Shown here piece after piece: positions 22,291 through 53,960 of a stretch of 64,000 nt of DNA. Position 1 is the stretch's first letter. Every line of letters begins with the position of its first letter. Under the pieces are notes generated by a model, which was not told where the DNA came from, ran no database searches, and saw only the letters and a program-made list of their open reading frames with translations. The stretch is from Raillietiella orientalis (lineage: Eukaryota). Where the stretch lies: NCBI GenBank assembly GCA_036172245.1, contig JAYWIR010000048.1:186001-250000 (forward strand), read 5' to 3'. A program made the translations under genes and the position numbers.

Positions 22291-22397
22291 CGTGGTCCGT
22301 CTGTCTTCGACAGAAGGTAAAGTCAGCGCTTGACCCGTTCCAGGATGCTAGGTTTCCTCTGCCTAAACGGACTATCCTTCCCATGGGTGTGAGCGGA

Positions 22398-26824: not shown

Positions 26825-26859
26825 TCTCCCTGCTTCTTCTCCTTTCCGGAGATTATCAT

Positions 26860-27210
26860 GTTAACTTCCCATCCCGTATGCAGTTCGCTTCATGCAGAGA
26901 GCTACCGGATGGCCCCACCTGGTTAGAATGAAGGAGGACCTCGAGGGCATCCTGCAAAGGATGGGCCCTCCCCGTAGTGAAATGTGATCCCTTCCCGGCC
27001 CTCGAAACTCTTTTTGTTTTTTTTTCTCAATTTTATTTTTCTTTTTGTTTTCTCCCCCATCCCCTTCCACTGCCGAGGAGAGTCACACCGGGCTGCCTCC
27101 CGGCGTCCCGGCAGGTCCAGTGTTGCGTGGCCGTTAGTGGGGCCTTGTACCACGTTTTTTTGTATTGACCATGCAAGAGGTTTTTAATAAACGTCCCGGA
27201 GTATCCGGGT
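26860..27210 (+). mobile_element. Short 3'-terminal fragment of the same LINE family, opposite orientation
   Basis: FMQRATGWPHLVRMKEDLEGILQRM parallels FLRRASRWPHLDPQIQQELAGILRRM. Ends AATAAA(27186)cgtCCCGGAgtaTCCGGG. Confidence 0.7.
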
Positions 27211-27288
27211 GGCATCTCCAAACCCGGAGGGAAGGAGCCCCAGGGGAAACTCCTCACAGAACTCGCGGACCGAACGCTTGAAGAAGTC

Positions 27289-28065
27289 TCAATCCTCGAG
27301 ATTCCGGAGGGTGACGCCTCTCAGGAATTGGCGGAGATGATCCGCCGCACCTGGGAGCCTCGTCCAATCCCCCGGCAGACGCCACGCCCTGAATGGGGGT
27401 CCCTTATCGCATGGCCAAACATCGAATATCAGACGGAAATGGTCGGACAGCGTCGACGTGAGCCTTCCTCGTTTACCGACTCGTGTACACAGGTCGTGGT
27501 CGAGGAAAACGTGGTCGATGCTGTCCTGCATTTCCGGGTGTCCCTCCATCAAGTTGTGCGCACGCATGGCGGAGCACAACTCGATCGGCGCGTTATTCTG
27601 CGTGCAGCACGCACCTGAGAGCAGGCGGAGGTTAAAGTCTCCGGCTATCAGGTGGGCCTTGCGCACTCCTGCATCAGTCAGCCAGTCGCGCTTTAGGTAC
27701 TGGAAGAACTGAGTTCTTTCCGCGTACCCTTTGCTGCCGCTCGGAGCGTACACGTTGGTAACGATGAGATCGATCGTGTCGGACCAGCTGAGAATCATCT
27801 GTCCAACACGACCGTTGTCATCGAAGCGCACGTTCCTCACGGGGGCGTCGACGGCTGGCTTTAAAAAGAACGCGACACCGCAGGTGTTGCGGTAGCTGCA
27901 TCGCCAATACAACCGACCTCCTGCGATCCTCTCGATCTCCTCGACGTCCCTCGCAGTGATCACGTGGATCTCCTGCAGAAGCGCCAGGTCGAATTCTCGC
28001 AGGGTGTCGGCTGTATCTCGCCTGTTGCCGTCGTCGCGCAGCCCGTTGACATTCCAACAGGCCAC
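27289..28065 (-). mobile_element. APE (L1-EN) endonuclease domain of a Tx1/L1-like ORF2, truncated before the RT
   Basis: WNVNGLR, LLQEIH, GVAF, NVYAPS, IAGDFN, IDHVF and LSDHF motifs. Confidence 0.93.
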
Positions 28066-28097
28066 GCGGATCCGTCGGCGACAGGCGAGCCCAGGGG

Positions 28098-29901
28098 TTA
28101 TTCCTGGGAACGTGGCAGTGCGTCTCCCGCCACCTTATCGGGCGGAACGGATGGAGGAGAGGGTGCATCGCGCACCGCTTCTCCCTCCTCCATAGAGGCC
28201 GATTCGGCTGCAGGCATCTTCGGGGGGAGTAGGCGGGTATCCTCTACCTGCACTTCCTCCTCCATGAGGTCCAATTCGTCGGCTGGGCCGGTCGGTGGAA
28301 GGGGGAGGTTGTCACCTACCTGCTCCCCCTCCTCCATGGGGGTTGACAGCTGCCCGGTCACGGGAAGTGGGAAATTCCCTTCCTCCATTCCCACGCTGCT
28401 GGTTTCCCCCCCGGTTGCCGGTGCGTTCTCCTCCTTCTTGGTCGGGATGCGCCTCCTTGGATTCTTGGGCTTCCGTCCCGTCTTCTTTGGAGGCGCCTCC
28501 GCGGAGGAGGATGCACCACCGGCATCCGGATCAGCATCACCTTCTTCAGGTGCCTTCACCGCGGCCAGCCTTCAAAAGGTTTTCGTGGCTGGATCTCTCG
28601 GCCGACGAGTTCGGCCTCGAGCTCTTCCGCTGCCTGTTCGAAGGCGGCGTCCTCGATTACGGAGAGCGCGTCGCACGGCTCCTCCTCTGTTTTCAGAGAG
28701 GGTTCGCCTTCGGGGATCGCGGCTTCGACGCAAACGAGGAGGGGGATATCTTCCCCGGTGGCGACCTCTAAGGTCCCCACTCGCTCCAAAGTGACCGAGC
28801 ATTCGCGAAGTAATGCGCAGCGCTGTCTCCTATTCAAAGGTTTCGCGGATGGCTCCGCTTTCGGGCCTTCGGTTTTCTTTGGTTTCTTTGGCTTCACCGT
28901 CTTCCAGCCCTCGTTCTCACCAGCGTCGTCGGGAGTTTTCTCGACCGGCGTTTGCTCAGAGGGTTCGGGGTCTGGCTTCTGGGCATGCCTTGCTGTAGCC
29001 TCTTTGGGCTTCGACGTTTTTTCCGCGCGTGTCCCTTGAGCTTTTTTCAAAGCGGGGAGAGCCAGAGTTTCGCGCTTTGGGCACACTTTCCGGAGGTGGC
29101 CCTTTTCTTCGCATGAGAAACACTGGATGTGAGGGCACCGTTTTCTCAGGTGCCCTGTGGCATTGCAGTGTCCACAGTACTTGGGTTTCCCCACGTACCA
29201 GACATCAACCTTCTCGTTGGCGACGTCCAGCTTGTGGAGTGGTAACCCGTGGTTTTGATGCACGGTTACACGCGCTGCGGCCATGACACTAAACAGCCTT
29301 CCATAGGTTTGGAAGACGTTGGGCTTGGTCCAGAGAGCGTGCACCGTGCCGTACTTGCTGAGTTCCTCCTGCACGCCCTTTGTCGACATGCGGAGGGTAA
29401 CTCCCGTGAGGTGCGCCACTACGGAGCGGTCCTCAGTCACTGGGAAGAGCTTTCTGCCCTCCAGTGTAATGGGGGTGTTCAGCAGGCGCTGAACCAGCCT
29501 TGCATCCTTGCAAGTCAACTCCACCCGTTGACCTCCACTAAGAACGGAAAGACCTTCCAGCTCTTCCTCCTTCCCGTTAAGCCGCTGCAACTCCCTTTCG
29601 AAGTTGCGAGCGGTATTGCCAACAAAGATATTGTGTACCTAATAGATTAGGGACGGCTTATATCCTTGCTCCTTGTATGCGGCTTGTTCGGCCATGGCAG
29701 CAGCGGATGGTGCTGCAGCCACGGCGCTCCAGGTCCTCGTTGTGGGCGAAGACGGCTCCGAGGGCACGGTTGCACCCTTTTTCAAGGGGACGGATGCCTT
29801 CGCCTCCGTGGGGCGATCGCCCCCACCATCGTGGGCTGGGGAGAGGAACTAGCCTCTCCCACTCCGATCTCCATCGCGGTGCCCGCAGGCATTTCTGCCA
29901 T
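28098..29901 (-). mobile_element. Gag-like ORF1 of the Tx1/L1-like element with two CCHC zinc knuckles (disrupted)
   Basis: CGHCNATGHLRKRC and CFSCEEKGHLRKVC, with TWSAVAA upstream. In-frame TAG at 29639-29641 and frameshifts near 29800 and 28560. Lies directly upstream of the APE ORF. Confidence 0.88.
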
Positions 29902-32231: not shown

Positions 32232-32480
32232 ATCTGCGGCGCACTCAGAAACCCCGGCGCAGGATCGACACCTCAAGAGGGAGACAGGTCGCAATGGAAG
32301 GATGCCGACCGTTCTCTGTCGGGGGGCAGAGGACGGTTGGGGTCGGGATCCCCTCGCCCTCGACCAGTCACGTGAGTGAGAGAAACGACCGCGTTTCCAG
32401 CTACTGGCAGGGAGTGGGGACAGGTGGCGGTCGTTGCTGACTCTTTTCGCAGCGATCCGAAGTGCTCCATGACCTACTAA
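32232..32480 (+). pseudogene. Type-2 paralog of the microprotein gene, exons 2-3 only (32232-32371, 32453-32480)
   Basis: 140-nt exon ICGALRNPGAG...SLSGGRGRLGSGSPRPRPVT with CAC|GTGAGT donor, ctgac-tcttttcgcag acceptor, then DPKCSMTY*. The 5' side is replaced by unrelated sequence. Confidence 0.55.
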
Positions 32481-32676
32481 TTGTTCTGTAAGGGAGAAGA
32501 AGTTGTTTTTCGATGCGGCACTGAAGGCACAGCAGAACTTCTTCATTCATGGTCTCCTTGGTTACACTGCAGAATTTCTTCATGGATAGTTTCCTCAGTT
32601 ACCATATTCAAAGGAGAAAGAAAACACAGTCCGGACTGCAGGCGCGTCTTTCGCCAATTAGGAAGAACCGGACACA

Positions 32677-33128
32677 ATGAACCAACGCAGGATATTGATG
32701 TGGGGGTTGGGCGCAGCGGCGGCTGCAGCCTGGATTTACCGGGAAGAGGTGAGTGGAGCCGGTGCGCGGCCGCCTTCGCACTAGCAGTTGGTTGCGGGCG
32801 CCTTCCGACTGCCTAGCGCAGGGCAGCAGCCCACCTTCGGGTGTGCTCTTTCGCACCCCCCTTGGCGGCTTTTCTTGCTCACCCTTCCCTGTAATGATGC
32901 CGTTTTATTTTCAGATCTGGAGCGCAGTCAAGAGAGCCTGCGCAGCACCGACTGCTAAGAACGAGGGCAGCAGAAAGGAAGAGGCTGCCCGCCGTGCTCT
33001 GTCGGGGGGCAGAGGACGGCTGGAGTCGGGAGCGCATGCCTCTCGACCGGTCACGTGAGTCTCCGACGCCACCGCTTTTTTCACAAAGTCTGTTCTTTTC
33101 CAGGAGACGAGGCCCGGTGAGGCGATAG
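32677..33128 (+). CDS. Putative 78-aa membrane-anchored microprotein, copy A (3 exons)
   Basis: Exons 32677-32748, 32915-33054, 33104-33128 with GTGAGT donors and polypyrimidine-CAG acceptors. Product MNQRRILMWGLGAAAAAAWIYREEIWSAVKRACAAPTAKNEGSRKEEAARRALSGGRGRLESGAHASRPVTRRGPVRR*. AATAAA at 33200. Confidence 0.65.
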
Positions 33129-33429
33129 GCGTGCTGCTATAGCCGCTGTCTGGGGACCCCCTGGGGCACCAAGGGGGAGGTTTCCCAGGGGAAGCTGTAA
33201 ATAAAATCTTTTTCTTGCGAAAAGGTTGGTTTTGCGAGTTTCTTCCGTAGAATTATTTCCTGATAGGGGATCCTTTCCAAGTCCCCCTCAAAGAAGGAAA
33301 TGGGAGCGTTCCCTTCCGCGAGTTCCTGCGGAAAGAGTAGGAAAGGAGATTCATTTTGGGCTTTTGCTTCGGAGACAACCAGGCTGGGCGGGATCTCCAT
33401 TCCCGGGATCCCTCTCCAGAAAAGAGTAC

Positions 33430-35520
33430 ACCATTCAATCTCTGAATAAAGCAATTTAAGGCGATGAACTAATCACAGAACACATGCTGGAAGAAGGGGC
33501 ATACAAAAATCGAATCTCCAAATCGAAAACATCCTGAAAAAGAAAGAACGGAATCTTTTCAAGAAAAAACTTGGCATGACCCTTCTGAATAAGAATAGCA
33601 TTCGAAAATTCTAGAATAGGAGAAGAAGGAGAGCAATGAGCACGATACTAGGATACAGAAATTGAACTTGCGCTCACGGGACCTCCAAAAGGTAGAGGAA
33701 TGCTTTTCTCCGAGACTGCAATTCCCCAAAGCACCGAATGAAAAATGAAAGGAAAACATAGTACTCGGAGGAAACCGAGAGATATCTCCTATGAACACGA
33801 CGCCCTTCTCTACTGACGAAGCTGCAAGTCACCTAAGAAAAGCAGAAAAATTGAGCCCAGGAATGGATGGGATCACTTACGCAGGATGGAGGAAAGTGCA
33901 TCCGAACTGCGAAGTGATGACCCCTGCATTCAAAATTCTATCAGGAACGAAGAGAACACTATCCTCCTGGAAGTGTTCGAAGACCATTATGCTCCAGAAC
34001 TCTTCACGAAATGGCAGATTGGAGACCGGTCTCCAGATCCATCATCATCGGTAGATTGTATGCGGATTGCGTTTCCACAAAAGTCAAAGAAAGGATTATA
34101 AGCAGTGAGATCAGAAGGCTTTTGCAGAAAGGTTTGATGCCATTGGATGGAGTACGTGATGAGTACTTCAACTTGCAGACGGGTTTTCATCATGCTGGAA
34201 GATGTTGCAAAGACCCAGGACTAGACTTCGTTGACCTCACAAACGCTTTTCGAAACCTGTCGCACGAGTTTCTGGTAGGAACTCTTCAGGAAACAGAAGT
34301 AGGCGAGAAGTCGCGCTCATGAAAGAAGAATATGAGCACAGCACGGCGTTCATCCAAGTGGAGTTCGGAGTCGCAAGAGTACTGACATTACAACGAGCAG
34401 CAAACCAAGGATGCCTTCTGAGTTCCTTGCTCTTGATATGTTCTTCAGCGTCGGTAATCAAGGCATTCCAGGAACCGTATGTGGAAGACAGTTTATTAAC
34501 TCACCCCAATGACCGGGTGATTCATGTGGTTACCGAAGAAGAACTATAAAAGGGTATATGTCACGCAGAGTAATTACTACAAAGAATCGGACTCACTATC
34601 AATCCTCCAAAGCGCGCAACAGTATTCTACGAAAGAAAAATGCCAAAAGGCTTTAAACACATAGAGATCCTTCTCAGGAATGTCCACATTCCGAACACTG
34701 AATTTTCAGAAATCCACAAGCATTTTAGACAGCCATTCGGAGTCGAGGTCTTCAACAAACAACCTACAAAAGTAGAAATCTCTATTAAAGCGGAAAAATT
34801 TCCATCAGACCGTCACTGTGGGAAAAGTCTGATGCTCTCAAGGTATTTCTGTTTTCTGACCTCATTCACCCCGAGAGGCTAGGGACGCTTCCAAAATCTG
34901 ATTGGAATTTTTTAGACATCAAGAAACGAAGGCTAGCGAAGGAAATAATACACCTTCCTCCGAGTACATATACGATGACAGGAAAGAAGGTTGCCTTGGG
35001 GAAATGAGGCTATCCGATGAAGCTAATGAGGCCTTTTAAGTAGTGGGGGCTAAGCTGGTTCTACAGGGGAAGATCTTCGAATAGATTTAATTGTTTTGCA
35101 AGCTTGCTCGATGCCTATGCCAAATTTCTTGGGCTCCTGATCTGACGGATTATTTGGCAGCCAATGCACTAAAAGGGACTGCTAAACTACAGGTGACAAC
35201 GAAATATGCCCAAAAGGTTGCTTCTGGAAAACTACCAGTCGCTCTCTCCTGCGGTGAAGACGCCGAACCTGCTTTCGGGAGGGAAGGAGCACTCTGCAAA
35301 AGACACGGAAGGTAACACTGCAGCTTGTCTCGCATTTTTGGAGAGGCGAGGATTCCGACGGTGCTCTCTGCTGCATCCGCCATGTGCTTTTGGCCTCCGA
35401 GGTGCACGCCGTGCTATCGGGGTGCGGGTGCCCAGTGCGACCACCTGTTTCCCTGTCCAACCGGCCAAAGAAGGAAGTTTCGTGGGACGCCAGGAAATTT
35501 CCTGCAGCCGTAGCGCGTGA
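33430..35520 (+). mobile_element. Degenerate NeSL/Utopia-like (RLE-type) non-LTR retrotransposon RT region
   Basis: Frameshifted ORFs give TPFSTDEAASHLRKAEKLSPGMDGITY, WRPVS, QKGLMPLDGV, FVDLTNAF, NQGCLLSSLL and GLTINPPK in RT order. Boundaries are approximate. Confidence 0.82.
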
Positions 35521-37198
35521 TACGAGAAGGGACGTTGATGTCAGGATAAGAGGGTGACGATGGGAAAGGGAGACTCTGTGATGTGGAGAGGGAGCAGAAA
35601 TGCAGATCCGGAGTCTCGAGAAGAAGATTCCTCTCAATTCGTTGTGTATCAAGCGTTAGGTGGGGAGGGGCGATGTTGACCAAAACGAAAGTATGCTTTG
35701 CTCAGGATGCAGTTAGGGGATTTCGAGCCGAAATTTGTCCTCAGGCATTTAGACTGTGGGAAAGACGTTGGCGGGAAGGAGAGAAAACTTGTGACCGGTA
35801 AACGGCTCGTCGGACCACTGATGATGGACAATCGCCATATGGGTAACCGTTCGATCTCTTTTGGTTTCCATAGGGTTCGTGCAACGGTTTTCTTGGAGCA
35901 AGCGAAGGTAGAACAAACTGATTGCAGCCACCAGAATGGGTAGGATGACGTGAGGGGAGAGAGAGGAATAAGGCAAAGGTGGGGCTGAAAAAAAAAAAAG
36001 CTTTTTTTCGAATGGAAATGAAGTCTCGGAGCACTGGAAAGAATGGGAGAAAACAGCCGAGTGATGCGCGCGGCCTCTCAGAAGGATGTTCTTTCTTCAG
36101 GAAGGAAGGATTGTAATGATGACAACCTCACCTGCAAAATAAGAAGCAGAAGTCTCGCTGTTGGGAATGCTGTGCTTTTGAAGACAAAGGAAATGTAATG
36201 AGAGAAAAATGCGATGGTAACGTTCTAGGGAAATTGGGGGAGCAGTGCTGCAACGGACATGGTGTAGGAGTCAAGTGTTCCTACTTTTGTGCACGATACG
36301 CTTGCTTGATGAAATGACGCTTCCGTGACGTGTGCTACAGACTGTAGAGATCACAGTGGATGCGATTGGTTAATGCGAAATCAGGGCACGAGACGATTCG
36401 TGCTGCGCATGTGCAAGGCGGTGAACGCGCGCACACTGGCTGCTGGACATGAAGCCAGCAGAACACACGACGTTGGAAGATTGGCGGCAGTTGCGCCGTG
36501 TTGCAGGAGAGCTGCTCATGACTTTGGGTTTGTGCTGGCAGAGGCAGCTGCAGATGAGGGCTGCTGTGAACACCTCCGCCTTCGTCTATTGGCAATGATC
36601 AGCACGAAGAGATGAAGCAAGTGCGCGGCTGCCAAAGAGGTCGGAAACGCCACGTGCGAAAACCAGGAAAAGAGGGGCAGCAACGGAAAGGAGGAAGAAG
36701 ACGACTTCGCACCCGGGAGAGCCGGGGTATAAAGGAGAAGGCGGTGGTATGCTCTCACTAGCGCAGCTTCCACTCAGAACAAACGAAGAGACTGCTAATG
36801 CAGTGGTGGCGATGGCGCTGCCAGAGACGGCATGACGGAACTTCGACGGCTCTCGTGCCGGCGCACTGCGACAGACAACCACCCCTCGTGCTGCCGACGG
36901 CGACCACAGCAGACACGGACCCCATGGCTCTTGCTGAAAAGTAGACGAATCGAGCTGGCATACAAGCAGCTGCGGTGAGAAAAAAAGCAAAAACCATCAA
37001 CGCAGCGAATGCTGTCCGAACTGTAGTCTTCTTCGCTGCAGCAAAATCCACCTGTGTTCCAAGACTGAGGCAACCTTTCAGAAGAGTATCCATCCGCACC
37101 TGGGAAACTGTCGGTATCCATGGAAAAGGAACTCCCCGAGAAATAGAGATGTCCCGACTGCTTACGTCCCTATCGCAAGGGAAGAAGACCTTGCTGGC

Positions 37199-37704
37199 AT
37201 GAACGGGCAAGAAAAGAATACTGCTGTGGGTGCTGGGCGCAGCAGCGGCTTTATCCTCACTATACAAATGGGTTAAGCGCAAGCTCCACCGCCACCGCTG
37301 CCTTTTGTCGCCCAAGTATTTTTTCATGTAGCCGCTTTTGCTAGCTTTCCGCCAGCATCGCGCAGCAGAGCTGCCGACGCTCGGGAGCGCGGCGAGCTTT
37401 TTTGCTTCCTCCTTCGCTGCTTTCTTTGCCTGCCTTTCGAATCTTGTGTTTTCAGATCTATAGCACCCTCAGGAACGTTTGGGCACCATCAACCCTCGAG
37501 GAGCTGGAGGAATCGCAAAGCAATGATGCCGACCGTTCTCTATCGGGGGGCAGAGGACGGTTGGGGTCGGGATCCCGTCGCCCTCGACCAGTCACGTGAG
37601 TGAGAGAAACGACCGCGTTTCCAGCTACTGGCAGGGAGTGGGGACAGGTGGCGGTCGTTGCTGACTCTTTTCGCAACGATCCGAAGTGCTCCATGACCTA
37701 CTAA
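37199..37704 (+). pseudogene. Type-2 paralog of the microprotein gene (disrupted)
   Basis: ATG AAC GGG, +1 frameshift, then KKRILLWVLGAAAALSSLYKW|GT. 140-nt exon 37456-37595 (IYSTLRNVWAP...SGGRGRLGSGSRRPRPVT). The exon-3 acceptor reads CAA instead of the CAG of the 32.4-kb copy. Confidence 0.55.
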
Positions 37705-38430
37705 TTGTTCTGTAAGGGAGAAGAAGTTGCTCTTCGACGCGGCACTGAAGGCACAGCAGAACTTCTTCATTCATGGTCTCCTTGGTTACACTGCAGAATT
37801 TCTTCATCAATGGTTTCCTCAGTTACTATATTCAAAGGAGAAAGCAAACACAGTCCGGAGAGCAGGCGCGTCTTTCGCCAATTAGGAAGAAACGGGCGCA
37901 ATGAACGGACGAAGGCTTTTGATGTGGGGTCTGGGCGCAGCGGCGGCTGCAGCCTGGATTTACCGGGAAGAGGTGAGTGGAGCCGGTGCGCGGCCGCCTT
38001 CGCCCTGGCAGTTGGTTGCGGGCGCCTTCCGACTGCCTAGCGCAGGGCAGCAGCCCACCTTCGGGTGTGCTCTTTCGCACCCCCCTTGGCGGCTTTTCTT
38101 GCTCACCCTTCCCTGTAATGATGCCGTTTTATTTTCAGATCTGGAGCGCAGTCAAGCGAGCCTGCGCAGCACCGACTGCTAAGAACGAGGGCAGCAGAAA
38201 GGAAAAGGCTGCCCGCCGTGCTCTGTCGGGGGGCACAGGACGGCTGGAGTCGGGAGCGCATGCCTCTAGACCAGTCACGTGAGTCTCTGACGCGACCGCT
38301 TTTTTCAAACATTGTTCTTTTCTAGGAGACGAGGCCCGGTAAGGCGATAGGCGTACCGCCAAAGCCGCGGTCAGGAGACCTCCTGGAACATCAAGGAGGA
38401 CGTGCCTCTGGGGAATGTCTGAATAAAATC
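37525..38430 (+). repeat. About 0.9-kb direct repeat of 32301-33210 (type-2 tail plus type-1 microgene)
   Basis: Offset 5224. Near-identical ORF-track peptides in both copies. Confidence 0.9.
37901..38350 (+). CDS. Putative 78-aa membrane-anchored microprotein, copy B (3 exons)
   Basis: Exons 37901-37972, 38139-38278, 38326-38350 with the same splice sites and phases as copy A. MNGRRLLMWGLGAAAAAAWIYREE...RPVTRRGPVRR*. AATAAA at 38422. Confidence 0.65.
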
Positions 38431-39044
38431 TTTCTCTACAAATCGCTGATCTGGACCACTGAAGGAAAGTCGGTGTCCAGTGAGGGTGGGCCAAGGACGG
38501 GGAGAGACATCCTCTTTAGGTGGCAAGGTTTTGTTAGTGTGCAGCAGACGTACGCTGTTTCGCACGAAGATTGGAAAGGAACCTGTTCCTGGTCATCTCA
38601 TGGCATGAGTCACAACAAAGGGTTGCTCCACCCGGCAAAACAAATGCCGTGGAACAAACTCTCCCTCAGGGCTTCAAGAGAACGCTGACCTGCCCACGGA
38701 TGCGAGCGGGCCTCGAAAGAAGAGGAGCCGCAAGGCCGACCACGAGAGAGCCGCGTTTCCGGTCAGACGGTGGCAAGCGACATGGGTCGACGCTCTCGTC
38801 GCCATCCCACAGCCACGAGGAGCATTCGAAACACGCCGAGGCGAATGCGTCAGCTTCCTCATTCCCGTAGGAGAACAATCTTCGCAGCGCCGCCGCTTTC
38901 CCGATCGGCCGGCAAGCGAGCGACCGCGGAAGTTCCCCGCTGGATTCGCGGACCCTGCAGAGCGCTCCGGCGGACGGGGCGTGGCACCGGGAAGGGACCA
39001 CCGTACCTTGTCGTTTCCTACTTCACAATGTCTCTCGCTGTCGG

Positions 39045-40571
39045 ACTGCCTTCACAAAGCCGAGACTGCTCTGGGCCCGTTCCAAGGCGGCAGGTTTCTC
39101 CTGTCGGAACGGGCCTTCGTGTGTAACATTTTCGTTGCCCCCCTCCTCCGTCCCCTCTTTTTTGTTTGTCCCCCTCTCTACTCGGCTACGCGCCGGGCGC
39201 AACGCCTGTTGCGTAACGCCCTGTGGGGACCAGCGAGGTCCAGGATACGCCTGAAGGACTTGGCGGCTCCTCGGCGGGATGCAGGATTGGGCATCCTGAC
39301 GCTGGAGCGGATCGGACTGCTAGTGCAGTTCCGCATGCTGGCACTTTGCGCCCAGCTATGGACTACTCCCTGGTGTGCTCCAGCGCGGCTGCTGCTGCGG
39401 CGCTGCACGGGTGGCGACGGACTGCGTTCGTTGCACCTGCGCACGGAGCGCGTCCAAAGAGGATTCGGCTTCCCTCTGAAGCAGCTCGCCTCGCTTCTGG
39501 AAAAGCATGCGTGGATCTCCTGCCGGCCGACGAGCATCAATGCCTGGAGGCAGGAAGCCTTATCGTCCTGGGCAGAGCAACAGGATGTGTCCCGTTTGGA
39601 ACTCCGTTGCGTTAACATTTCCCCATACTGTCCAGTGGGGGAGGTGCTCAAGGACCAGGACCAGTGGACATGCCTAGCCGCTAAGCATCTTGCAGTAGCA
39701 CAGTCTGCACTGATGGTGCGAGACGACAGTGACCTACCGGCGAGGTGGGAGGTCGCCTTCGAAATCGCAGGCGAAAACCGACTGCTGGGAGGCTGGAGGA
39801 CTTGCGAGCTGGCAGACGCTGCCACGCCTCGCATTCGTGCCAAGGGACTTCTCCGGTGGAGCGAGCTCCTCAGGGTGCCCACCGAAGAACTTGTGGTCCC
39901 TTCTGCGTGTTTGGACGCGACTGTCTCCCCCCTGAGGTGGAAACAGGGAGCTTTTCTGCTGGTGCATTGGGGTCTGTACTGCAACCAGCGCGCGCACCTG
40001 GTTTCCGGGGGAGTTGCGTCCCCGAACTGTGCCAAAAGCGGAGCGGTGAAATCGCGTCCGCATTTGCTGTTTGAATGCGGTGCCCTCCAGGAGCTGTGGC
40101 GGCGGCTGTCTTCAGCGCTCCTGCACCCCGGACACATCGTAATGGATTCTGTGCGCCGCTTCTTCACGCGTGGCTGTCTATCTCTGGGAGCGGTCGTCGC
40201 AATCATCTGCTGCGTCCTTGCCACTGTCAGGGCCCGCCACGTATTGCAGGTGCGAGCGGTCCCAACATCGGTCCCCGACACTGCAGCCTGCAACCTGCAA
40301 ATGGCTGCCGGGTGGCCACACCTTGGAGCAGAAGTGAGGACGGAGATTGCCGGCATTCACCGCCGGTTCTGAGAATAGGAACGGCTGGACAGCATACCTT
40401 TATCCCCACCCTCCCACCCTATTTATTTATTTATTATCCCCTCCCTCCCGTTCCGAACTCTCAGTGTGCCCGGCCTGCGAGCTGGGAACCCTCTTCCCCA
40501 TCTTCTGTTCCCCTTGCCTGGGAACACAGTTCCCAGATGATATTATTAATAAACGTCCCGGCGCAACCGGG
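39045..40571 (+). mobile_element. Tx1-like LINE, post-RT half of ORF2 (open to 40372) plus 3'UTR
   Basis: LSERAFVCNIF, LAAPRRDAGLGI (P...GGLG-like), HWGLYCN...PNC...PHLLFEC and GWPHL. 3' end AATAAA(40548)cgtCCCGGcgcaaCCGGG. The start of ORF 38981 is chimeric with the 334-bp repeat. Confidence 0.82.
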
Positions 40572-40649
40572 TAATAATCGATAAGGGCCATCACGCCAAG
40601 GCAGCCATCTCTTGTTTTTCCATAGAGATATTCCTTCGATGATCATTTT

Positions 40650-41420
40650 TTGAGGGGGAGGATAGACTGCTTCAGGACATCCTTAATGATTTTGTCGAGC
40701 CTAACCCAAGAGCTCAATGGGTTTTGTAGGAAGTGGAGGATCATGAACAAGGGAAGAGAGAAAGGAAGATTTAATGGCATCCAGTTGTTGCCATGGTAAA
40801 CAAGAGGGAAGTCCGTAAATTAATAGCATTCTTAAATAACAGAGAGCACCATATGGTGATTATAGGTCTCTCACTTTTGTTGATTGGAAAAGATGTTACA
40901 CCACAAAATTATGAAGAATGGACAAAAAGACGTGTTCGTGCATTGTGTGGAGCTGTAGGTATAACTGAGGACAACAACATCTGGACTAGAGCTTTATATC
41001 CATCACAAGCTATTATGAGGAAATCACATTTAATCTTATCTGCAAGTTTTACCTTTAGAAGAGAAATATTTAAGATTTGTATGTCATTGTCTAGAACCAC
41101 CATAAGAACTGGTACTGTATTTCGTGAGGTTATACAATTACTAGAATGGACAGATATGAATCATATCGTCATGATTGATGAATTCCCTATGTGCAGAATT
41201 CCAGAAATAGTAAGAATAAGGGAGTTGAAAGATAATTTGGCCCCATTAGAGGTTTTTTTACAGATTCCTAGATAGTATAGAAGAGCAAGAAAGACCGTAT
41301 ATTAGATTATTATACGATAAAGATTTCTGTGCACCATGCAACAGAAATAATTTTGGACCATTATGTGCAGCTGCTGTATGTGTTTCTAGATCAGAATTAA
41401 ACTATGAGGAATGGACGTGA
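40650..41420 (+). pseudogene. Endogenous viral element: disrupted nucleoprotein of a negative-strand RNA virus (Monjiviricetes; Xinmoviridae/Lispiviridae-like, chuvirus-like as alternative)
   Basis: ORF 40793-41275 IIGLSLLLIGKDVTPQNYEEWTKRRVRALCGAVG...LSASFTFRREIFKIC...VFREVIQLLEWTDMNHIVMID...PEIVRIRELKDN. After a frameshift in the T7 run (about 41253-41259) it continues YRFLDSIEEQERPYIRLLYDKDFCAPCNRNNFGPLCAAAV to TGA at 41418-41420. Intronless and AT-rich compared with the left flank. Family recalled from motifs, not searched. Confidence 0.72.
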
Positions 41421-41519
41421 ACGCATCTTTTATGTCAATCCATGCAATTGCCAAATCTTTATCATGAACTCGTGAGTGCTCGATGGAGCGAGCTCGCTTC
41501 GACGAAGCGAGGACAAATT

Positions 41520-43000
41520 TTTGTTCGAGCACACCATCGAATGGGAGAAAACCTTTTTAGTGTGGACCTACTATGCCATTTCTGATGATCCACGATCGCA
41601 ATCGACGAGCCAGGGTTTTTGAAAACAGCTTACCTATCGTATTGGTAATGGAAACGGGTCGGAATTGGGAGATGTTTAGAGGGCCGGATGATCCTGATTT
41701 TGAGATAAGCACTGTTCTTGAGGATTTCTAATCATCTGGAATTCTGTGATGGTGTAAACAAGCAGAGAACAAAGAAGCAAGACAGGAACCGTCTGGATCT
41801 GCAAGATGAAGTACAGAGTATACAATTTCCTCACTCCCAGGGGTGCTATCAGTACATGAATTCAGCGCGAAGTTGACTTCTTGGGAAAATAGAGAGGAGC
41901 AGTCTACTTCATCATGAGCATCTTTAACATAATCAACTATTTCATTTGCCGTAAACTCCTCAGAAAATTTGTCACGAAACGCTTCTTCCAGAAGTGCTCT
42001 GGAGCCTTCAAATGTCAGTGGATTTGGATTCAGTATAGCTTGGACTGCCCGTTTCCTACTACGTTTATACAGGAATTGCAACCAATGTTTGGATAACGCA
42101 GGCCGGAAAGCTTTTTGGTTTTCTGAACGAGTAGAAGTAGAAGAAAGAGAGCAACGAATCTTCAATCTTTCTTTTATGGCTGCCATCATTGAATGAAGTG
42201 AATTCAGTACACATTGCCACGAGTCGCAGTTTGGGAAGATGCTGCGCAGTTTGAAAGAATAAGTGAAGTTGGATAACAGGCTTGGAGAGGTAGCAAATCT
42301 TGAAACTTGGACTGTTACAGGATTTTCAGAGGGCAACGAGGTATTCTGATCAACAGACAAGCTGTGATTTGCTTTGGATGCTTCCCTAACCGCGGACCAA
42401 AATGTGCGTGGGTCACCACTCTTGCGATTCAGGAGTTCCAGACAACACCCATTCAGAAACTGGGTAATGAGGGTAAGGTTTGATTTTGTTATCACTAGTA
42501 GATGGTTGTTTCGATCTCATATTGGGGGTTTGATGGTTACGGGGCGGTATGCTTTCTCGAAAAGGGACTTTCGTTTGACATCGCATAGTGGTATCTTCAG
42601 TTTCCGTTCCAAGATAAGATAATCCCTCGAAGCGATTTGGATAAGTCCTTACAGATTTGAACTGCGAGATGCTCCCAATTTGTTGTTGTTATGAATCCTG
42701 TCATGCCACCTTGAATGGCTATTCAGACTGATTTCAGAGAAGAAAGAAGCAGATCAATTTGTAAGAGTACATTTGTATTGTAGCGGAACCAGTTTAGATG
42801 CTCGGATATTTGGCAATCTGAGACATGGATGGTGTTGAAGGGGAAGTTGAATGATTTCATTGCACCGTCGGCATACTAAAGAGTGTTTGTATAAAGGGTA
42901 TGAGCAGTTCTGAAAAGTCTCTTCAAGGACGCAAGGATACATTTCGCAACCAACGTTTGAGTATACCATGAACACGTAGGAATGATATGATTTAATATAG
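41520..43000 (-). mobile_element. 5' part of a second NeSL/Utopia-like RLE element (zinc-finger region and RT N-terminus), truncated at about 41520
   Basis: CRRC and LNSHSRWH zinc-finger remnants. ORF 41728-42495 has LQFLYKRSRKRAVQAIL, STPGSEEIVY, DPDGSCLASLFSACL..RIP, continuing *KSSRTVLISK...FRPVSITNTIGKLF...*KGFLPFDGVLEQ. Confidence 0.82.
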
Positions 43001-45599
43001 ACAAGTGACAAGTGGGTATCAGACAAGTGATTATTCGAGGTTAAGGTTACCTCATTATTATCGATGGGTGGTAGACAAAGTGAATTTAGTAGTGGAGTCA
43101 TAAGTCGACTTGCTTGAACTGTTGAGTGTCCACGAACGGAACTATAATTCCCTTCTGTCGGCCACAGTGTGGACTGCCTAATGTTTAGCTGAGCGGGAGG
43201 ACTGACTATTGTAACCTTCTTTTTGAACGTAGCACGGATGAGGGGAATTTGACTACCAATATTTTCCTTGGACCTAATATCAGAGACTTGAGTAAACGTT
43301 GTTCCTCGGGAGCTCCAAGATTTAGGCATATGTACGGGAGCAGGACACGGAATATGTTATTGAATAACGTTATTCTCAGAGGCTGTTGATATTTGTGCAG
43401 GGGAAAGGGGTAAAGAAGGCAAAGGTTCGTCACTACAAGAAGCGTGAGAATTTTGAAATTGGATGATTTTAGGTGAATGAACTAAAGGGGGACTAAGAAT
43501 TTCGCTGGAGGACACTCCCTTTGGACAAGAAAGAGATGTGTGGTACTTTTTGGACAAGGACCGATGAGGAAGTACTATGAAGCGAAGTTTTTTGAGACTT
43601 TTCGAAGGTAAAAGTGCTGATCGATCTAAAAGTTCGGAATGATCGGCATCAGCATAGGGGTTCACAGAAACTAGATTCTACTTGAGGGTTCACTTCCACC
43701 CTCTGGTAGTCCATTGGACTACCAGAGGGTGGAAGTGTGCTAAGAGTAACCACTCTTGGCGACAAAGGATGAAAAATGGACGGTGCTTTCATAATGGGAA
43801 TCTGTACACGAGTTAGAAAGAAAATTATGGGATCCAATTTCCTCCGTAACACCCTTGGAGAGGTTTCTTCAGCAATGAGAAAAGAGAGTTCTTGTGGAAA
43901 TGGTTGAATGGTCTCTTTATGGGTTTGAAAATCCTTATTGCTTCGATGAGTTCACGGGAAGGTTTTATTTTACAGTCACTACTTACTCACCGTGAAGCTT
44001 GATCAAAAGAGGAAGATTGAAAGGCCAGTTCAGGAGAGCGATCACCACCTGCCATCAATCCTTGATGATTAGCATCGCTAGGTTCCGTGATGGATGCTTC
44101 AAATAGCTCGAAACAATTGATCTTCTTGAATTTTTACTGTGCATGATCAATCTATGATTTTTGCGGAGAGGTCTGTGATCGAAGGCAGAATTGCTCTGGT
44201 CGCATTTATAACTGAGGTGTGGTAGTGGGACAGGCAGGGCCGTGGATCTTTTTATTCCTGTGCAAGAGTGAGCAGGCGTAGGAACAAAAGACACTTTGAC
44301 AGTGAAACCGCATGTTGGACGAAAATAAAAGCATTGTGATGGAAACACTCCATGTATTCTGCTCAAATGTTTTACGTTTCTCTACCTATTATGCTTAAGT
44401 TCTCTTTTGGAGGCAAATTTACATCCTACTACGAGACAGGAACAGGACGAGGGAACAAAGGGAAAATACAGATCCTTATTTTCATCCAAAAAAAAACAAG
44501 ATATACCTCTTACGCTACTGGCAGTCATTTTCAAAAGTGTGAATCGCATAGCACGTGCCTATATTCTTGAAAAACAAATTGGGTATGAGCGGAGAGAGTC
44601 ATCAGGCCACAGATCGACCTTAAATTTGAAACTTCATGAGATGACAGAACCACCACCAGATGACCAAGCGAGAAAAACAAAGAAAGACTTTCCATGTCGG
44701 TCAGCTATCGGTCGATGACGTCACAGGCAGCTGGGGTTGACATCGGATCGATAATCAATACTTACAGCAACAGCGAGTAGCTGATGCGACAATAAATTAA
44801 TTAATTATATTTTATTTTATTTTGTGTTTTTCAATAAAAAGGCATCCGTTAATCACGGGTTTTCCAGGAATTCTGGATTGCAAGATCAAATTAAGCGAAT
44901 ATATTGCAACAACTCGCGTTGCTTGGCAGCGCCATTTCGAACGTGAAAATTACAAACGTTTTAACAAGTCTTTAGACAAATTTTGGAGGAAAAAGGGGAA
45001 TTAACTTTCGAAACGTCGAAATCAACTAAATGGGGAACTCTTGATCACAAAGTGAATTCGCAAAGTGTTCTTGCAGACGAAAATTTTACTTGGAACGAAC
45101 TTACCTTGCGCCATGACGATGGTGCGATAACACAAAGACTTTTTATGATTTTATTTTTTGAACACGAATTCAAAAACACCAAAAACGGTACGAAATGCAC
45201 CTTAGGCTTGCAGTTCCTTGGCGCGGGCGAGCAACGATTGACGACGGTTGCCCTGCAGGGAAAACGTTCGCGGGCGGAACGTTCCGCAGACGCATCCGAC
45301 GCGCGCAGGCGCGACGATGACGTCACTTTCGGGCGAGCGGCCGAGCAGCTCGCCGCCTCGCTGCAGCGACCTCCCAAGGCCGCGCAACAGGCATCCCTTC
45401 AAGGCGCCCCCCTTCCTCCTCCATGAAGGGGTCGAAGATCTCGGACTCTGAATAGGAAGCCGGAAAGGCACCATCCGTCGACGAGGCACCCCGCCGGAAA
45501 GCTGGACTCAAGTCCAAGAATCCGAGGAGGATCATCTCCCCGTCGAATGCCCTCCGGAAGCGAGGGTGCAATGAGCGTGGGAGAACGGGGCTCCTCGTC

Positions 45600-46313
45600 C
45601 GAGAATCTCCCACGTTCCGACGCGGAGGGGATGTAGGAGGTGGGGGCCGTCCAGGTGCTCGAGCTAACTCAGGTGCCTCAGGTGGCCGTCGCCTACGAAA
45701 GCGTCCCACCCGCTGAGGAGAACGCCGCAACGCCACCTTCCCGGTCTTAATGCAGGGAATCGGCTCTTTCCAGATGCATGCCTTGCTGAAGAAGAGTACG
45801 TGGATCTCCTGCCACCCCTCGAACCGCACTTCGTTGCTTCAGTAGTCAGTTTCCTCATGCGGAAAGATGAACGGCTCGAGGGAGGAAGAGTACGCCTGCC
45901 TTCGACGAGGCCCTTACGCTCGACAGCCCTGCAGGAGATCGTAAACAACCCACGCAAGTTGCTGTGGGATTCCCTTACCCCTCTTGCTCCTGTGCTGTCC
46001 TCCCTCAGGAGCGCTAGGGACAGCAACGAGCGAGCACCGTGGGAAGTGTCCTACCTCATCAGAGGCGTGAAAAAATTGTTAAGGGCGTGGACATCTCGGG
46101 AGGTAGCGGACGCTGCAACCCCGAGTGTCCCATCTAAAGGACTTGTGCGCTGGGACGAGCTGCTCGGCATACCTCTGGAGGAGGTGAAGTGGCCCCCAGC
46201 GCGATGGGACAATGTCACCCTTTCCTTGGAGTGGCAGGAGACGGCGTTGCTATTCTTGCATTGGGGAATCCTATGCAGAGCACGTCTCTCGCACTGGACT
46301 CATGGGAGTTCTC
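45600..46313 (+). mobile_element. Tx1-like LINE ORF2 C-terminal fragment
   Basis: ORF 45800-46366: WEVSY...AATPSVPSKGLVRWDELLGIPLEEVKWP...LHWGILCRARLSHWTHG, homologous to the 39045 and 26228 copies. Confidence 0.75.
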
Positions 46314-46880
46314 ACCCGGTCACGCCGGGGCGTTTATTGATAAACACTTTACATTTGCGGTACTAGGCCCCGCTACGGCCAATAGTTCATGGGACCTGCC
46401 AGGAAGCCGGTTCACAGGCCGGCTTGACTGTCCTCGGCAGCGGAGGGAATAGGGGGTAAAACAAAAAGAAAAATAAATGAAACAAACAGAAAGAAACTAT
46501 TTGGAGGGCCGGAAAGGGATCACAACCTGCTGGAGGAAGGGACCATCCTTTCCAGGATGCCCTCGAGGTGCCTCCTCCCAGATGGGACCAGCCGATCGCG
46601 ATTCGCAGGTCGCTACCTGCGAATCGCGATCGGCTGGACCAGCGTGTACGATGGGGTCCCTATCGCTGCTTCCTCTGTTGGCTGCGCTCCACGCAGCCAC
46701 AATCCCTCGGAGGCAGCAGAGCGCTGCCAGGGTTGAGGCTGGTTGCAGGGCGTCCCGCACGAAGAGGAGTCTCACAACGTCTCTGGGGGTACTGCCGACC
46801 GGCATCCGGAGGGTCGTAGCAAAACGTTCCCACAAGGGCCGGAGGGCAGCACAATCCACTAACAGGTGGGGGAGAAGATA
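46314..46880 (-). mobile_element. Tx1-like LINE 3' end, inverted relative to the adjacent fragment
   Basis: LPHLLVDCAALRPLW...ALCCLRGIVAAWS. 3' end AATAAAcgcCCCGGcgtgaCCGGGT on the minus strand (46338-46314). Confidence 0.78.
46588..46637. repeat. Perfect 23-bp-arm palindrome, 4-nt loop
   Basis: ccagccgatcgcgattcgcaggt-cgct-acctgcgaatcgcgatcggctgg. Confidence 0.95.
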
Positions 46881-48890
46881 AAATGAAGAGGACCCCCTTT
46901 CCCCTCCCGGTAGGTGTCCCTCTGGAGAGAATGAGGAAGAGGGTTCTCTTTGGAGACAACCAAGGTAGGAAGTCCGATCCCTCCAGGAGGGAAGATCCCT
47001 CCCTGAGCGTGAGAGGAACGGACTCCAAGCTCTCACTGGACTCAAAGAGCAGACCCCATCCCGGGTGCCCCCTATCCTGAAGAATTACACGCACACTCTG
47101 CGGGTGGCCGCAGGTGGAGTGGCGAGGAAACAAACAGTGTGCAAAGAAACAGTTTAAAGAGCCACGTGTGCTGCGAGGCATGCGACCGGCTCTTGAAGTT
47201 CTTGGCTAACCAAAAAAAAAAGAAACCCTCCCTAAAAAAAGGTGGAAGGAAAAAACAGCGAAAACAGAAGAAAAAAAGGACCCAAGGATTTCCATTATTT
47301 TCATTACAAACTCTTTGCGCCTTCAAAAGTAAGGCTTTCATTTCGGCCGAACAGTGGTCTATCTACGACTGGAGCCATTCACAAAAAGATTTCAAAGAAT
47401 TCTTACTAAAGTGAAAGGCTGCACTTAAAGAAGCTTGCACTTGTGAGATTGACAAAGTCAAAAGTTATAAATATGGACAAAGGAGAGAATGCCGTTGGTT
47501 GCAAACTTACCCTTATTTCAATGGAAGCGAAAAGAATATTCCACAAGAACATGAAGTTTCTAATTCGTATTTTACGTAGACAGTGGAATGATACCGAAAA
47601 GCACGAGCACAAGGTGTTCAAAGTCTGCAGTTCCAGTTTTGACTCTTTAGGTATGACTGTGTCCAGAAATAATCACTTCTTCACACGAAAGAAAGCCTGA
47701 AAGGCATTTTTGCATGCGCCTCAGAAAAAAAACACATATGGAAAGAGAAGTCATCCAGTCTGATAAACATTAGTGTTATAAGTGCTCTTTCAGAAATGCG
47801 GAATCAAGAAAAGATTTCATTTATGGAAATATGTGCAAATGCCTCATCTGCACGCTCCATTATGGAGACCGCTTACCTCGAGTACTCTATGTATGCATGT
47901 GTACCTATAAAGAGATGTACATAATGTAGGACTTTGAAAGGGTGCCTGTTCTTCTTGTGGTGCTCTTGTTACGGTTACTAATGCTATTGCTGCTGCTGTA
48001 GCTGTTACCATTATTATTATTACTTTTTATTCCAGATCCACAAGAATTCACTGTATCCACCGGGGATTGGAGAGCACTCCAGAGAATGGCAACTGTTTCT
48101 CTACAGTGCCAAGGTGAGTACCTGCCGTGGGCAAAAACAGGAAGTCAGCTGTCTGGCAATGAAAATCTTAAAGCATCAGTTCCAGCTGTAGGATGCAAAT
48201 GCAGATACAAAAATTTTCGCACTCACATTTACGGTTCTCCCAATCTCACCTTTCTACGAATACCATTCTGCAGGCGATTCCGAAGTTGCGGCCGCATCTT
48301 TCGTATTATGTAAAAAAAAGCGTCTCCACAAAGATGCAGATGAAGATTCAAGCGTTTGCACGGCACGTGATCTCACAAAGGTGTTCGAATAAAATGATAG
48401 CAACAACAGTTTGGTTACTTCCTGCAGTGAGCCACTCCAGGAGAGTGCACTATTCGAACGCCATCTTGTGCAGGTTCTCCGCCGCCCAGGTCTTGCGTGT
48501 GTCCGGGCCCCACGCATAGTGCAACGGATTCGTTCCTGCCCAGGCCGGTCCTAGTCACACGATCGGCTTTCGAAAAGATGTAAAATCTATCTTTGTCAGT
48601 TGGAAGCCAAAAGAAAACAAGTGTTTATTTACACTTGGAATGAGAATTCTTGTTGGATCAAACAATTCTATCGTTTCAGCTCTGCCATCCTGGGCGTGGA
48701 AAAATGCATCAGTAGGTCACCAGAACGCCATGTCTAGTCCAATCTTGTTCTGGCGTCCCTTTGGAGAACGGAAGAAGCCGCCCTACACCTCAACATCAAA
48801 ACGCCTCCTCGGTGGTTAACGGGACCGATTGACCTCTTAGGGGAGGACTGCCGCCATTTCTCCGTCGCCACATGCGAATGCGCTAGACAG

Positions 48891-49712
48891 AAATGTGCTT
48901 CTCTTTGGTTCACCTGGCACAGGGAAAAACCTGTTGGTTAGAGCAGTTGCTTCTCAGTGCTCGACGACCTTTTTCAACATTTCCGCCAGTTCCTTGGTTA
49001 GCAAGTGGAAAGGGGAATCGGAGAAATCGGTTCGACTCCTATTTGAGTTGGCACGTTCACGCGCTCCATCCGTAATTTTTATCGATGAAATTGACAGCCT
49101 AATAAACCACAGAGATAGCAGCGTTGAGCAGGAAGGAACGAGGCGCCTAAAAACGGAAATGTTGATCCAGTTAGATGGATTGGTTCAAAATTCCTCCCAA
49201 GTGTTGTTACTTTGTACCACAAACATGCCATGGTATGTGTCATTCGGAATCGCTCATTTCTGTGCTCGTAGGGAATTAGACATTTCGTTCACTCGAAGGA
49301 TGGAAGAACGCATTTACGTCGGTTTGCCGGATGCCAAGTCCAGATCTTTGTTATTCCAGAAATTTCTCCCTAGAAACTTGGGCTCCGATGAAGCAAAGTT
49401 CGAAGTTTGTGTTGATTACGAAGAGTGTGCGCTGCACAGCGAAGGATTCTCCGGCAGCGATATACAAACGATTTGCAGGAAAGTTGCAAAGATGCACCTC
49501 CGAAACGTGTTGAGGCGTTACGAAGGTATTTATGACCTCAGACAGTCATCCCGTCACGTCACACAGGTGCTCCTGGAGGGAAAAGAGACAGTTTGTTTCA
49601 CGAGACCATCCTCACCTCTGACTTGCTAGATCTGTTGTCCAAGTTAGAGCCGCTGTCGGAACCTTTGAGATCGAAGTATTCGCTATGGAAACAGCGAATT
49701 CATCTGGGCTGA
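48891..49712 (+). CDS. KATNAL2: Katanin p60-like 2 AAA ATPase, 3' exons only (5' exons not found)
   Basis: LLFGSPGTGKN, TTFFNISASSLVSKWKGESEK, IFIDEID, RRLKTEMLIQLDG, TNMPW|ELD, RRMEERIYVGLP, EGFSGSDI. Introns 49233-49271 (39 nt) and 49526-49566 (41 nt). Last exon ...TSDLLDLLSKLEP...KYSLWKQRIHLG*. Confidence 0.8.
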
Positions 49713-52629: not shown

Positions 52630-53960
52630 CTTGCCTTTCGTGGAGCGCCAGCTGCCTCCAGAAGGAAGAATTGGCGATGGGTCCGTTCCATGATGACAAG
52701 TTACTATTGCGAGAACGGGCTGAGGTGTGCAACACGTGCGTGGCACCTGTTCTGTCCCCGGCTTTTTGTTTTCCCCTCAACGAGAAGTGAAAACAGGCGG
52801 ACGAAGGCACCTTCTGAGAATCGCCCTGTGGTGCTAAGGGAGGCTCAGTGTCCGCCTGAAGGACTTGTGCGTTCCGCGTCGCCAAGGGGACCTCGGCCTC
52901 CCGACGCTGGAGCGCCTGCAGCGGTCATTTTCCCTAGTGACGAAGCTGTGGAGCACGAACTGGTGCGAGCCGCACCATACCTTGCCAAGCGAGCCACAGT
53001 CACCGTTCCACTTGTCCACGCATTGACGTCGCTCCTGGCACAGCGGCGCTGAAGAAACGTGTCCTGACTCGAGCTCCGGCGAGTGACCACGCTGACCAGG
53101 ATCAGCATCTGGATTTAGTGGTGGCTAACGAACGGTAGTGACTGGTTGCAGGAGACCTTTCGAACATGGGCAAAGTACAACAAAGCGAGCCTTGGGATGT
53201 GGCATTCACTGCTGTACTCCTCCCACAACAACCATTCGCTGCAGCATATGCGGCCTACCACGGGTTCGTGGGCTCAAATAACCTTCCTAAACACGAAGCT
53301 ACCATTCCCCCGGGAGTTCCTTGGCAGTGACCAGCTGGGCAAATGGGAGGTCAGTTGCGAAATCGGTCTTCGGACGATGGAATTAGGTGTTTGGACCACG
53401 GGCCAGCTCACGGACGCTGCGACCATAAGTGCTTCACAGAAAGGATTATTGCTCTGGGATAAAGTGCTGGGAATCCCACAGGAAGACCTCTAGTGGCCCT
53501 CAGCGTTAAAGAACAACCGGACGATCCCTTTGAAGTAGAAGGAGTCGGCAGTTCTGCTGTTGCACTACGGTCTCCCAAGCAACGCCCACCGCTCCCACCA
53601 AACCCGAAACGCTGTGGATCCCAACTGTTGCAGGTGCGGGGAATGGGAATCCCTCCAGCACCTGCTGGTAGACTGTGCTGCCCTCCGACCCCTGCGGTTG
53701 ATTTGCTCAAAGACCCTTTCTGCACCAACGGACAATCCCAGGGATGAAGAGGACGTCCTCAAGAGGACAGTGATCCTTTGCCTAATCCTCTCAAGTTGTA
53801 TACAGCTTTCTGTTTTTAATTTTGTCTGCCACTTTTTCCTCCGCTGCCGAGGCGAAACTCGCCCATCTGCGTACCGGTTACTCTGCAGGTTTCAAACTTT
53901 TTCGGATGTTGTAGGGCCGATGGCTCTACATCTCTATTGCTATAATAAACCCTACCGGGT
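52630..53960 (+). mobile_element. Degenerate Tx1-like LINE, post-RT ORF2 and 3' end
   Basis: LLLRERAEVCNTCVAP, WEVSCEI, KGLLLWDKVLGIP, VDPNCCRCGEWESLQHLLVDC. AATAAAccctaccgggt at about 53944. Confidence 0.75.

Follow-up and report, generated by a model that had tools for sequence, protein, structure and literature searches.

The DNA analysed here is a 64,000-nucleotide stretch of a Raillietiella orientalis contig, called the window throughout. The question it raises is how a short AT-rich reading frame that looks like a viral nucleoprotein (N) came to lie among non-LTR retrotransposons. From the letters alone it had been proposed (the original prediction) that the frame is a fossil of a negative-strand RNA virus, wedged between two different retrotransposons and captured from viral mRNA through template switching. 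The analysis establishes that the peptide comes from a mononegavirus N and is a genuine piece of it. The locus is in all probability a non-retroviral EVE with an N piece of ~0.6 kb that lacks both ends of the gene and carries one frame break. Its surroundings are not quite those first described, and the route by which the viral sequence arrived has to be weighed among several explanations.

The reading frame runs without stops from 40775 to 41275 on the plus strand (166 codons), with an in-frame TAA at 40772-40774 just 5' of it, and a second plus-strand frame of 56 codons spans 41250-41420. The two meet at a run of seven T residues (Table 1), the single frame break of the N fragment, beyond which the homology carries on in the other frame; this change of frame may be a true lesion or may stem from the assembly. 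The GC content over 40800-41400 is 0.34-0.35, compared with 0.59-0.62 in the LINE on the left. At the local base composition the stop probability per codon is 0.080, or one stop per 12-13 codons, and 166 codons without a stop have a probability of ~1e-6. One of 2000 shuffles of 40775-41420 gave a 166-codon frame in any of the six frames. Both figures indicate that the 166-codon frame is more than a product of chance. The original prediction was thus accurate about the stop-free AT-rich frame with its upstream in-frame stop and about the one homopolymer frame change, and all six peptide patterns that it quoted are found in the translation.

A phmmer search with the window peptide, run against a database of 1.84 billion representatives (1.84e9, one per 50% cluster of ~15 billion proteins), returned 113 matches at E ≤ 1e-3, of which 41 reached E ≤ 1e-10; the top match had an E of 4.5e-30 and 43% identity. 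Most of the full-length matches are 410-450 aa long, and the aligned region corresponds to their residues ~150-300. A profile built from 25 full-length matches retrieved 21 proteins of the named collection, of which three carry a name. These three are N proteins of termite lispiviruses, including the Macrotermes bellicosus lispivirus 1 nucleocapsid protein and the Jimsystermes virus nucleoprotein, and in tblastn the named relatives are 40-44% identical to the fossil over ~190 residues. The closest of them, P0002, belongs to Cat Tien virus and is encoded on a 12323-nt sequence, the same as the published Cat Tien virus genome. In the part of PMC9143207 that covers it, this genome is described as 12323 nt long with five ORFs including the RdRp, and its polymerase as closest to that of Jimsystermes virus. 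In alignment A1 (19 rows), eight columns are invariant, and all eight are invariant with the fossil among the rows.

The predicted structures lead to the same identification. The AF2 model of P0002 (pLDDT 84.3) matches the N proteins of Sendai, Nipah, Marburg, Ebola, measles and mumps viruses with a probability of 1.00 and TMq of 0.42-0.55. The model of the window peptide, read across the break with an X (pLDDT 89.5), matches N of Nipah, measles, Borna, Ebola and parainfluenza viruses with TMq of 0.49-0.63. Both models have the helical, two-lobed N fold, and among the matches listed for them there is solely mononegavirus N, at probabilities of 0.99-1.00 and TMq of 0.42-0.63. At the sequence level, the 25-sequence profile matched Borna disease virus N in the PDB with E of 0.005-0.02. 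The best matches might have been cellular proteins or transposable element proteins, or none of them viral; in both sequence and structure they were mononegavirus N. The original assignment to this class of protein therefore holds, with lispiviruses as the nearest named relatives on the phmmer score, the named N matches and the predicted N fold.

Several simpler searches gave little. Pfam on both frames returned DUF6070 alone (E 0.024, taken as noise), a single-sequence PDB search with the peptide gave noise (best E 0.11), and tblastn against phage records gave a match of 26% identity at E 0.6, also noise. A search for homologues of near length found none at E ≤ 0.01; its range of 117-375 aa excludes most N proteins of 410-450 aa. 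A scan of viral contigs with alignment A3 yielded 38 pattern matches, none of which was confirmed. A Pfam family was found in none of 20 full-length relatives, though their fold is clearly that of mononegavirus N, which explains the blank Pfam result for the fossil. With an N family that has no Pfam profile, routine annotation will miss such fossils.

The N coverage corresponds to residues ~140-341 of ~430, so that ~140 N-terminal and ~85 C-terminal residues are missing; with profile positions ~138-350 present and one frame break, this is a fragment and not a gene. In hmmsearch of profiles A3 and A2 against the six-frame translation, the first-frame part scored i-E values of 4.9e-50 and 7.8e-57, with a start at 40784 or 40814, and the second-frame part 7.4e-11 and 2.2e-13, with an end at 41393-41396. 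The second-frame part is aligned with all relatives in alignment A1. No second N-like stretch was found in the 64-kb window by tblastn with 18 N proteins, and tblastn with N proteins found no further viral gene or other part of N in it. The features are collected in Table 1.

Table 1. Features at and around the viral fragment, with positions in the window.
Feature	Position	Strand	Remarks
GC-rich LINE ("LINE-A")	38609..40576	+	ORF2 C-terminal part 38609-40372, then 3' untranslated tail
Putative R2-type RT thumb remnant	40577..40799	-	Three collinear motifs, one frame change, at least one stop
N fragment, first frame	40784..41251	+	Profile positions 138/158-303 of ~430; inside stop-free 40775-41275
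T7 homopolymer	41253..41259	+	Meeting point of both N frames; homology carries on in the other frame
N fragment, second frame	41259..41396	+	Profile positions 296/306-341/350; carries the NRNNF motif
Putative R2-type RT, fingers to motif A (..AWIDIKDAFTSIPHSLIL)	41392..41727	-	Ends against the N fragment; one stop inside
Putative upstream part of the same R2-type ORF	41728..42516	-	262 stop-free codons in the RT frame; a stop divides it from the RT
Putative second degenerate R2-type RT copy	33921..35018	+	Several frame changes; comparison standard

The identity of the fossil to any relative is 31-46%, with none above ~46%. In a tree of N proteins (40 rows, three of them named), the terminal branch of the fossil measures 1.92, and the fossil falls in an unresolved group of 32 rows (SH-aLRT 93); the same group contains a termite lispi-like clade (10 rows, SH-aLRT 99), and the fossil lies outside that clade. 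The proposal of an undescribed virus lineage is in line with these data, given a best identity of 41-46% and a long, unplaced branch. ICTV family placement uses the L polymerase. Since the window has no L gene and only three of the rows are named, "lispivirus-like" serves here as a label and not as a placement in the Lispiviridae. So labelled, the donor appears from these comparisons to be an unsampled lispivirus-like mononegavirus. The N proteins of termite lispiviruses share with the fossil the motifs seen in alignment A1 and the predicted N fold; they differ from it in that the window has residues ~140-341 with a frame break, no L gene and a long branch.

Lispi-like N was also seen at 11 metagenome loci (L001-L011). 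Two of these, L001 and L002, have whole open frames of 440 and 437 codons. In 6 of the 11 the N is frame-broken (L003, L004, L006, L007, L010, L011), and L008 and L009 hold N residues 67-241 alone, in the middle of 3.3-kb contigs. A scan of 19 neighbouring ORFs found an RVT_1 ORF in L004, 1.9 kb downstream, and a DDE_Tnp_IS1595 transposase ORF in L006. The frame-broken loci are probably EVEs of other hosts. They resemble the fossil in being N relatives with frame changes; unlike it, they are 31-44% identical to the window peptide and beyond N have nothing in common with the window.

To the right of the N fragment, the minus strand encodes part of a reverse transcriptase. The piece between 41727 and 41392 matches R2 proteins of the PDB with E from 9.6e-10 to 2.6e-8 (best: chain residues 375-519) versus 2.5e-3 for LINE-1 ORF2p. 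It also matches RVT_1 positions 6-86 of 205 (E 1.2e-5), at 25.6 bits, below the Pfam gathering cut-off of 29.6. By these comparisons the flank seems to be of the R2-superfamily type, the restriction-like-endonuclease type of non-LTR element, being closest to R2 enzymes. One minus-strand frame with two stops extends from 42516 down to 41389, and its last 150 residues are the part with the PDB R2 match; the match begins at residue 222 of P0132. There is no gap to the viral fragment, and the RT overlaps the last ~29 nt of the plus-strand frame. With the RT reaching down to ~41392 and the N homology ending at 41393-41396, the right junction is sharp within a few bases. The truncation of the RT that had been placed at ~41520 is in consequence too far out, as the RT continues to ~41392, through motif A.

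On the left, the minus-strand translation contains, in order, the motifs LPWQQLDAIK.., LDKIIKDVLKQSILPL and EYLYGKTRDGCLGVMAL, which we take to be thumb motifs of R2-type enzymes. The assignment of 40784-40799 is ambiguous between N and thumb. Two collinear tblastx matches of 25 and 21 residues (E 4.5e-5) link 40793-40577 on the minus strand with 34819-34893 and 34956-35018 on the plus strand, and these are the sole non-self matches of 40400-45300 within the window. PDB searches with two short thumb pieces gave no R2 protein.

The region matched by tblastx is a second, degenerate copy of what appears to be the same kind of RT. Its RVT_1 matches are both weak, covering positions 7-97 (E 0.066) and then 111-192 (E 0.16); its part 33921-34319 aligns in BLASTP with 41389-41727 of the minus strand at E 6e-13. 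The two copies thus offer equivalent points on either side of the viral sequence, 41392 corresponding to 34277 and 40793 to 34819. Between these points the fossil-bearing copy has 598 nt of antisense N where the second copy has 541 nt of palm. The part replaced is the RT palm, RVT_1 positions ~87-205, and the minus-strand translations of 40800-41390 contain no antisense RT motifs beneath N. The second copy is convergent with the fossil-bearing one, from which it is separated by 5.5 kb of GC-rich, LINE-like sequence.

These comparisons point to an N fragment enclosed in antisense within one R2-type copy, where it would replace the RT palm with the same element in register on both sides; the scores for the thumb and for the palm of the second copy are weak. 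In the assembly as given, the fragment is bounded by R2-type RT on the right and by RT thumb and then LINE on the left. The order along the plus strand is LINE-A 3' end (~40576), R2-type thumb (-), N (+), and the N-terminal half of the RT with the upstream ORF (-). The original picture of a fragment wedged between two different retrotransposons does not survive: the left neighbour appears to be the same R2-type element, and the LINE truncates it ~220 bp further left. The hairpin cccgg-cgcaa-ccggg that had been reported to end at 40571 is present, but N does not start ~100 bp from it, as its homology begins at 40784-40814, i.e., 213-243 bp away.

That hairpin, at 40557-40571, belongs to the tail of LINE-A and is followed by ..gtaataa. 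The similarity of the two R2-type copies ends at 40577, where the antisense of the LINE-A tail starts. A coding part of LINE-A (39689-40129) is kin at the protein level to a LINE of the window that has Exo_endo_phos, zf-RVT and zf-CCHC, and its Atlas neighbours carry zf-RVT/RVT_1. LINE-A inserted separately and at a later time, and the R2-type element lost its 3' part in the process. A site-specific LINE cutting both R2-type copies at the same codon was considered and rejected: the similarity merely stops at the truncation of the first copy, and the second copy is bordered by sequence unrelated to LINE-A.

How the viral sequence entered the element is a matter of probabilities. We put at about an even chance that the chimera arose at the RNA/cDNA level, via template switching by an RT. 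The R2-type RT would have left the element template during copying, copied ~0.6 kb of viral RNA and then gone back to the element template further on. A switch during first-strand synthesis would have been onto the viral genome strand, one during second-strand synthesis onto N mRNA. The antisense orientation fits either template, so that the mRNA named in the original prediction is one of two candidates. The encapsidation of mononegavirus genomes speaks against the genome strand. LINE-A would later have been inserted at ~40576 with loss of the 3' part of the element, and the N piece would now be neutral, decaying DNA. Template switching suits the layout found here better than the original prediction had grounds to expect, and it is favoured because it would by itself place parts of one element, in register, to the left and right of the viral piece. 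That it was specifically an R2-type (target-primed, non-LTR) RT which switched templates twice in mid-copy, returning to its own template in near register, is a tentative proposal and on the unlikely side. Against a template-switch origin, double switching at internal positions is less common than the end-to-end jumping known of non-LTR enzymes. A further reason for favouring template switching is that retrotransposon-virus chimeras are, in part of PMC5497376, the proposed route for insect viral DNA.

Capture at the DNA level is a substantial possibility, if somewhat short of even. Free viral cDNA, made by any cellular RT, would have been ligated into a double-strand break in an integrated R2-type copy with the loss of ~0.54 kb, and its orientation and near-equal length would be coincidental. 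The same layout is expected, since an insertion with a deletion explains it equally well; the antisense orientation requires no special template, and both junctions are sharp within ~5-15 nt. The window is, moreover, so dense in retrotransposon-like sequence, which makes up most of it, that a random break would often fall inside an element and a chance landing in one is not unlikely. Against it, a single site must have undergone two events of similar size, a deletion and an insertion. In insects, the route that has been documented is that of vDNA chimeras with retrotransposon RNA (sections of PMC5497376). The state of decay also bears on the choice. N has 1 lesion in ~199 codons and the flanking RT has 4 in ~449, similar densities that give no sign of a later arrival of N; that the density in N is not below that of the flanks speaks against capture at the DNA level, with the reservation that the counts are small.

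The same counts bear on whether the fragment has been kept for a function, be it interference with related viruses by a shortened N-like protein or the templating of antiviral piRNAs. Such roles have been described for N-derived EVEs in parts of PMC11978097 and PMC6580184. Here, ~200 codons without a stop in AT-rich DNA, the retention of all eight invariant columns of the 19-row alignment and a neighbourhood rich in transposon fragments, like piRNA clusters, would suit them. Both ends of the gene are missing, however, there is a frame break, and the lesion density equals that of the surrounding dead RT; we give a function a low probability. Still less probable is an assembly artefact or contamination, in which reads of an infecting virus were misjoined to transposon sequence. 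The sole frame break does lie in a homopolymer, a typical site of sequencing errors. Yet the N piece is cut at both ends within the gene, the flanks within ~15 nt are two parts of what appears to be one element, in register, and the window is without any other viral gene or part of N; the double truncation and the in-register flanks make such an artefact very improbable.

Negative-strand RNA viruses have commonly left N-gene fossils in the genomes of invertebrates, and the fossil itself is in that respect ordinary; the EBLN of vertebrates are further N-derived EVEs. Passages of PMC5497376 and PMC6580184 describe EVEs beside or inside retrotransposons and propose template switching as the cause. 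The rhabdo-like insertions of Aedes, which derive from N, G and L, occur in association with Ty3/gypsy and Pao-Bel elements (PMC5497376, in part), and in Ixodes, where mononega-like N insertions occur, the flanks are two-fold enriched for non-LTR fragments of the R1, I and L1 types (PMC6580184, in part). As far as these passages go, the arthropod NIRVS resemble the present locus in consisting of mononegavirus N fragments that are truncated, frame-broken and set in retrotransposon-rich regions (PMC5497376; PMC6580184). They differ in that the partners are LTR elements in Aedes and R1, I and L1 are nearby in Ixodes, whereas a lispi-like donor here appears to lie inside an R2-type RT gene. The closest parallel in layout is AeBunya1 of Aedes aegypti, described in a section of PMC5497376 as a viral integration within a full-length Pao-Bel element: there too, virus sequence is enclosed by one retroelement and does not merely adjoin it. 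The difference is an LTR element and a bunyavirus in that case, and in the present one a non-LTR element whose catalytic palm would have been replaced.

For the proposed mechanism, related observations have been made on other enzymes. Work by Geuking in 2009 and by Goic in 2013 reportedly described LCMV-IAP recombinant cDNAs and Drosophila/mosquito vDNA chimeras, and Bibillo and Eickbush in 2002 are said to have observed in-vitro template jumping by the R2 reverse transcriptase. All are like the fossil in the mechanism proposed, a retroelement RT switching between its own RNA and viral RNA. These cases concern LTR-type enzymes or end-to-end jumps in vitro, whereas an internal double switch in the germline by an R2-type enzyme would be called for here. 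If that reading is true, R2-type elements would be a source of germline virus-derived DNA besides LTR elements and L1. Since the viral piece seems to replace the R2-type catalytic core almost length for length, the locus offers a clean test case for the passage of viral RNA to DNA.

In passages of a literature that includes PMC9143207 and PMC11978097, lispiviruses figure as exogenous viruses whose hosts are termites, aphids, other insects and Trichinella. Those passages describe no lispivirus-derived N fossil, which is said of the passages and is no claim of absence from print. The fossil stands for a lispivirus-like lineage to which nothing among 1.84 billion representative proteins is more than ~46% identical, and it stands to widen the range of hosts or of time over which the lispivirus-like group is known. 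If the account given here is true, part of a virus lineage without a sampled close relative has been preserved, possibly in a host group without known lispiviruses.

The wider sequence around the fossil is a sharp GC mosaic between 36000 and 46000, with values of 0.55-0.67 over ~36300-40500 and from 45150 onward versus 0.34-0.45 over 40600-45100; this AT-rich block is the putative R2-type element with the viral fragment. In the GC-rich part, 37513-38437 matches 32289-33215 at 93%, its part 37964-38437 matches 31336-30861 in inverted orientation at 94.5%, and 38689-39044 matches 22376-22731 at 98.6%. These matches mark the LINE block left of the fossil as a mosaic of young repeats. Scans for structured RNAs gave 0 Rfam matches and 0 tRNAs, tandem repeats yielded no informative signal, and two Atlas look-ups pointed weakly to a mixture of taxa that included Mucoromycota, Basidiomycota, Oomycota and Cnidaria. 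An APE-type LINE at 26231-29638 on the minus strand has Exo_endo_phos (1.7e-16), zf-RVT (2.1e-5) and a zinc knuckle in its upstream ORF, and its C-terminal part is kin at the protein level to LINE-A and to the copies at 45983-46318 and 53326-53727.

Two frames of other kinds were noted further along the plus strand. The 262-codon frame at 48841-49626 codes for the domain of an AAA+ ATPase together with its lid (Pfam AAA 2.3e-32, AAA_lid_3 5.7e-7). In the PDB it scores best against the D2 domain of p97/VCP (3.4e-57), its identity to the database proteins listed is only 31-46%, and it is possibly a gene or an exon of the host. The other, at 58896-59375, is a thrombospondin type-1 repeat frame (TSP_1 2e-13, TSP1_spondin 3e-12).
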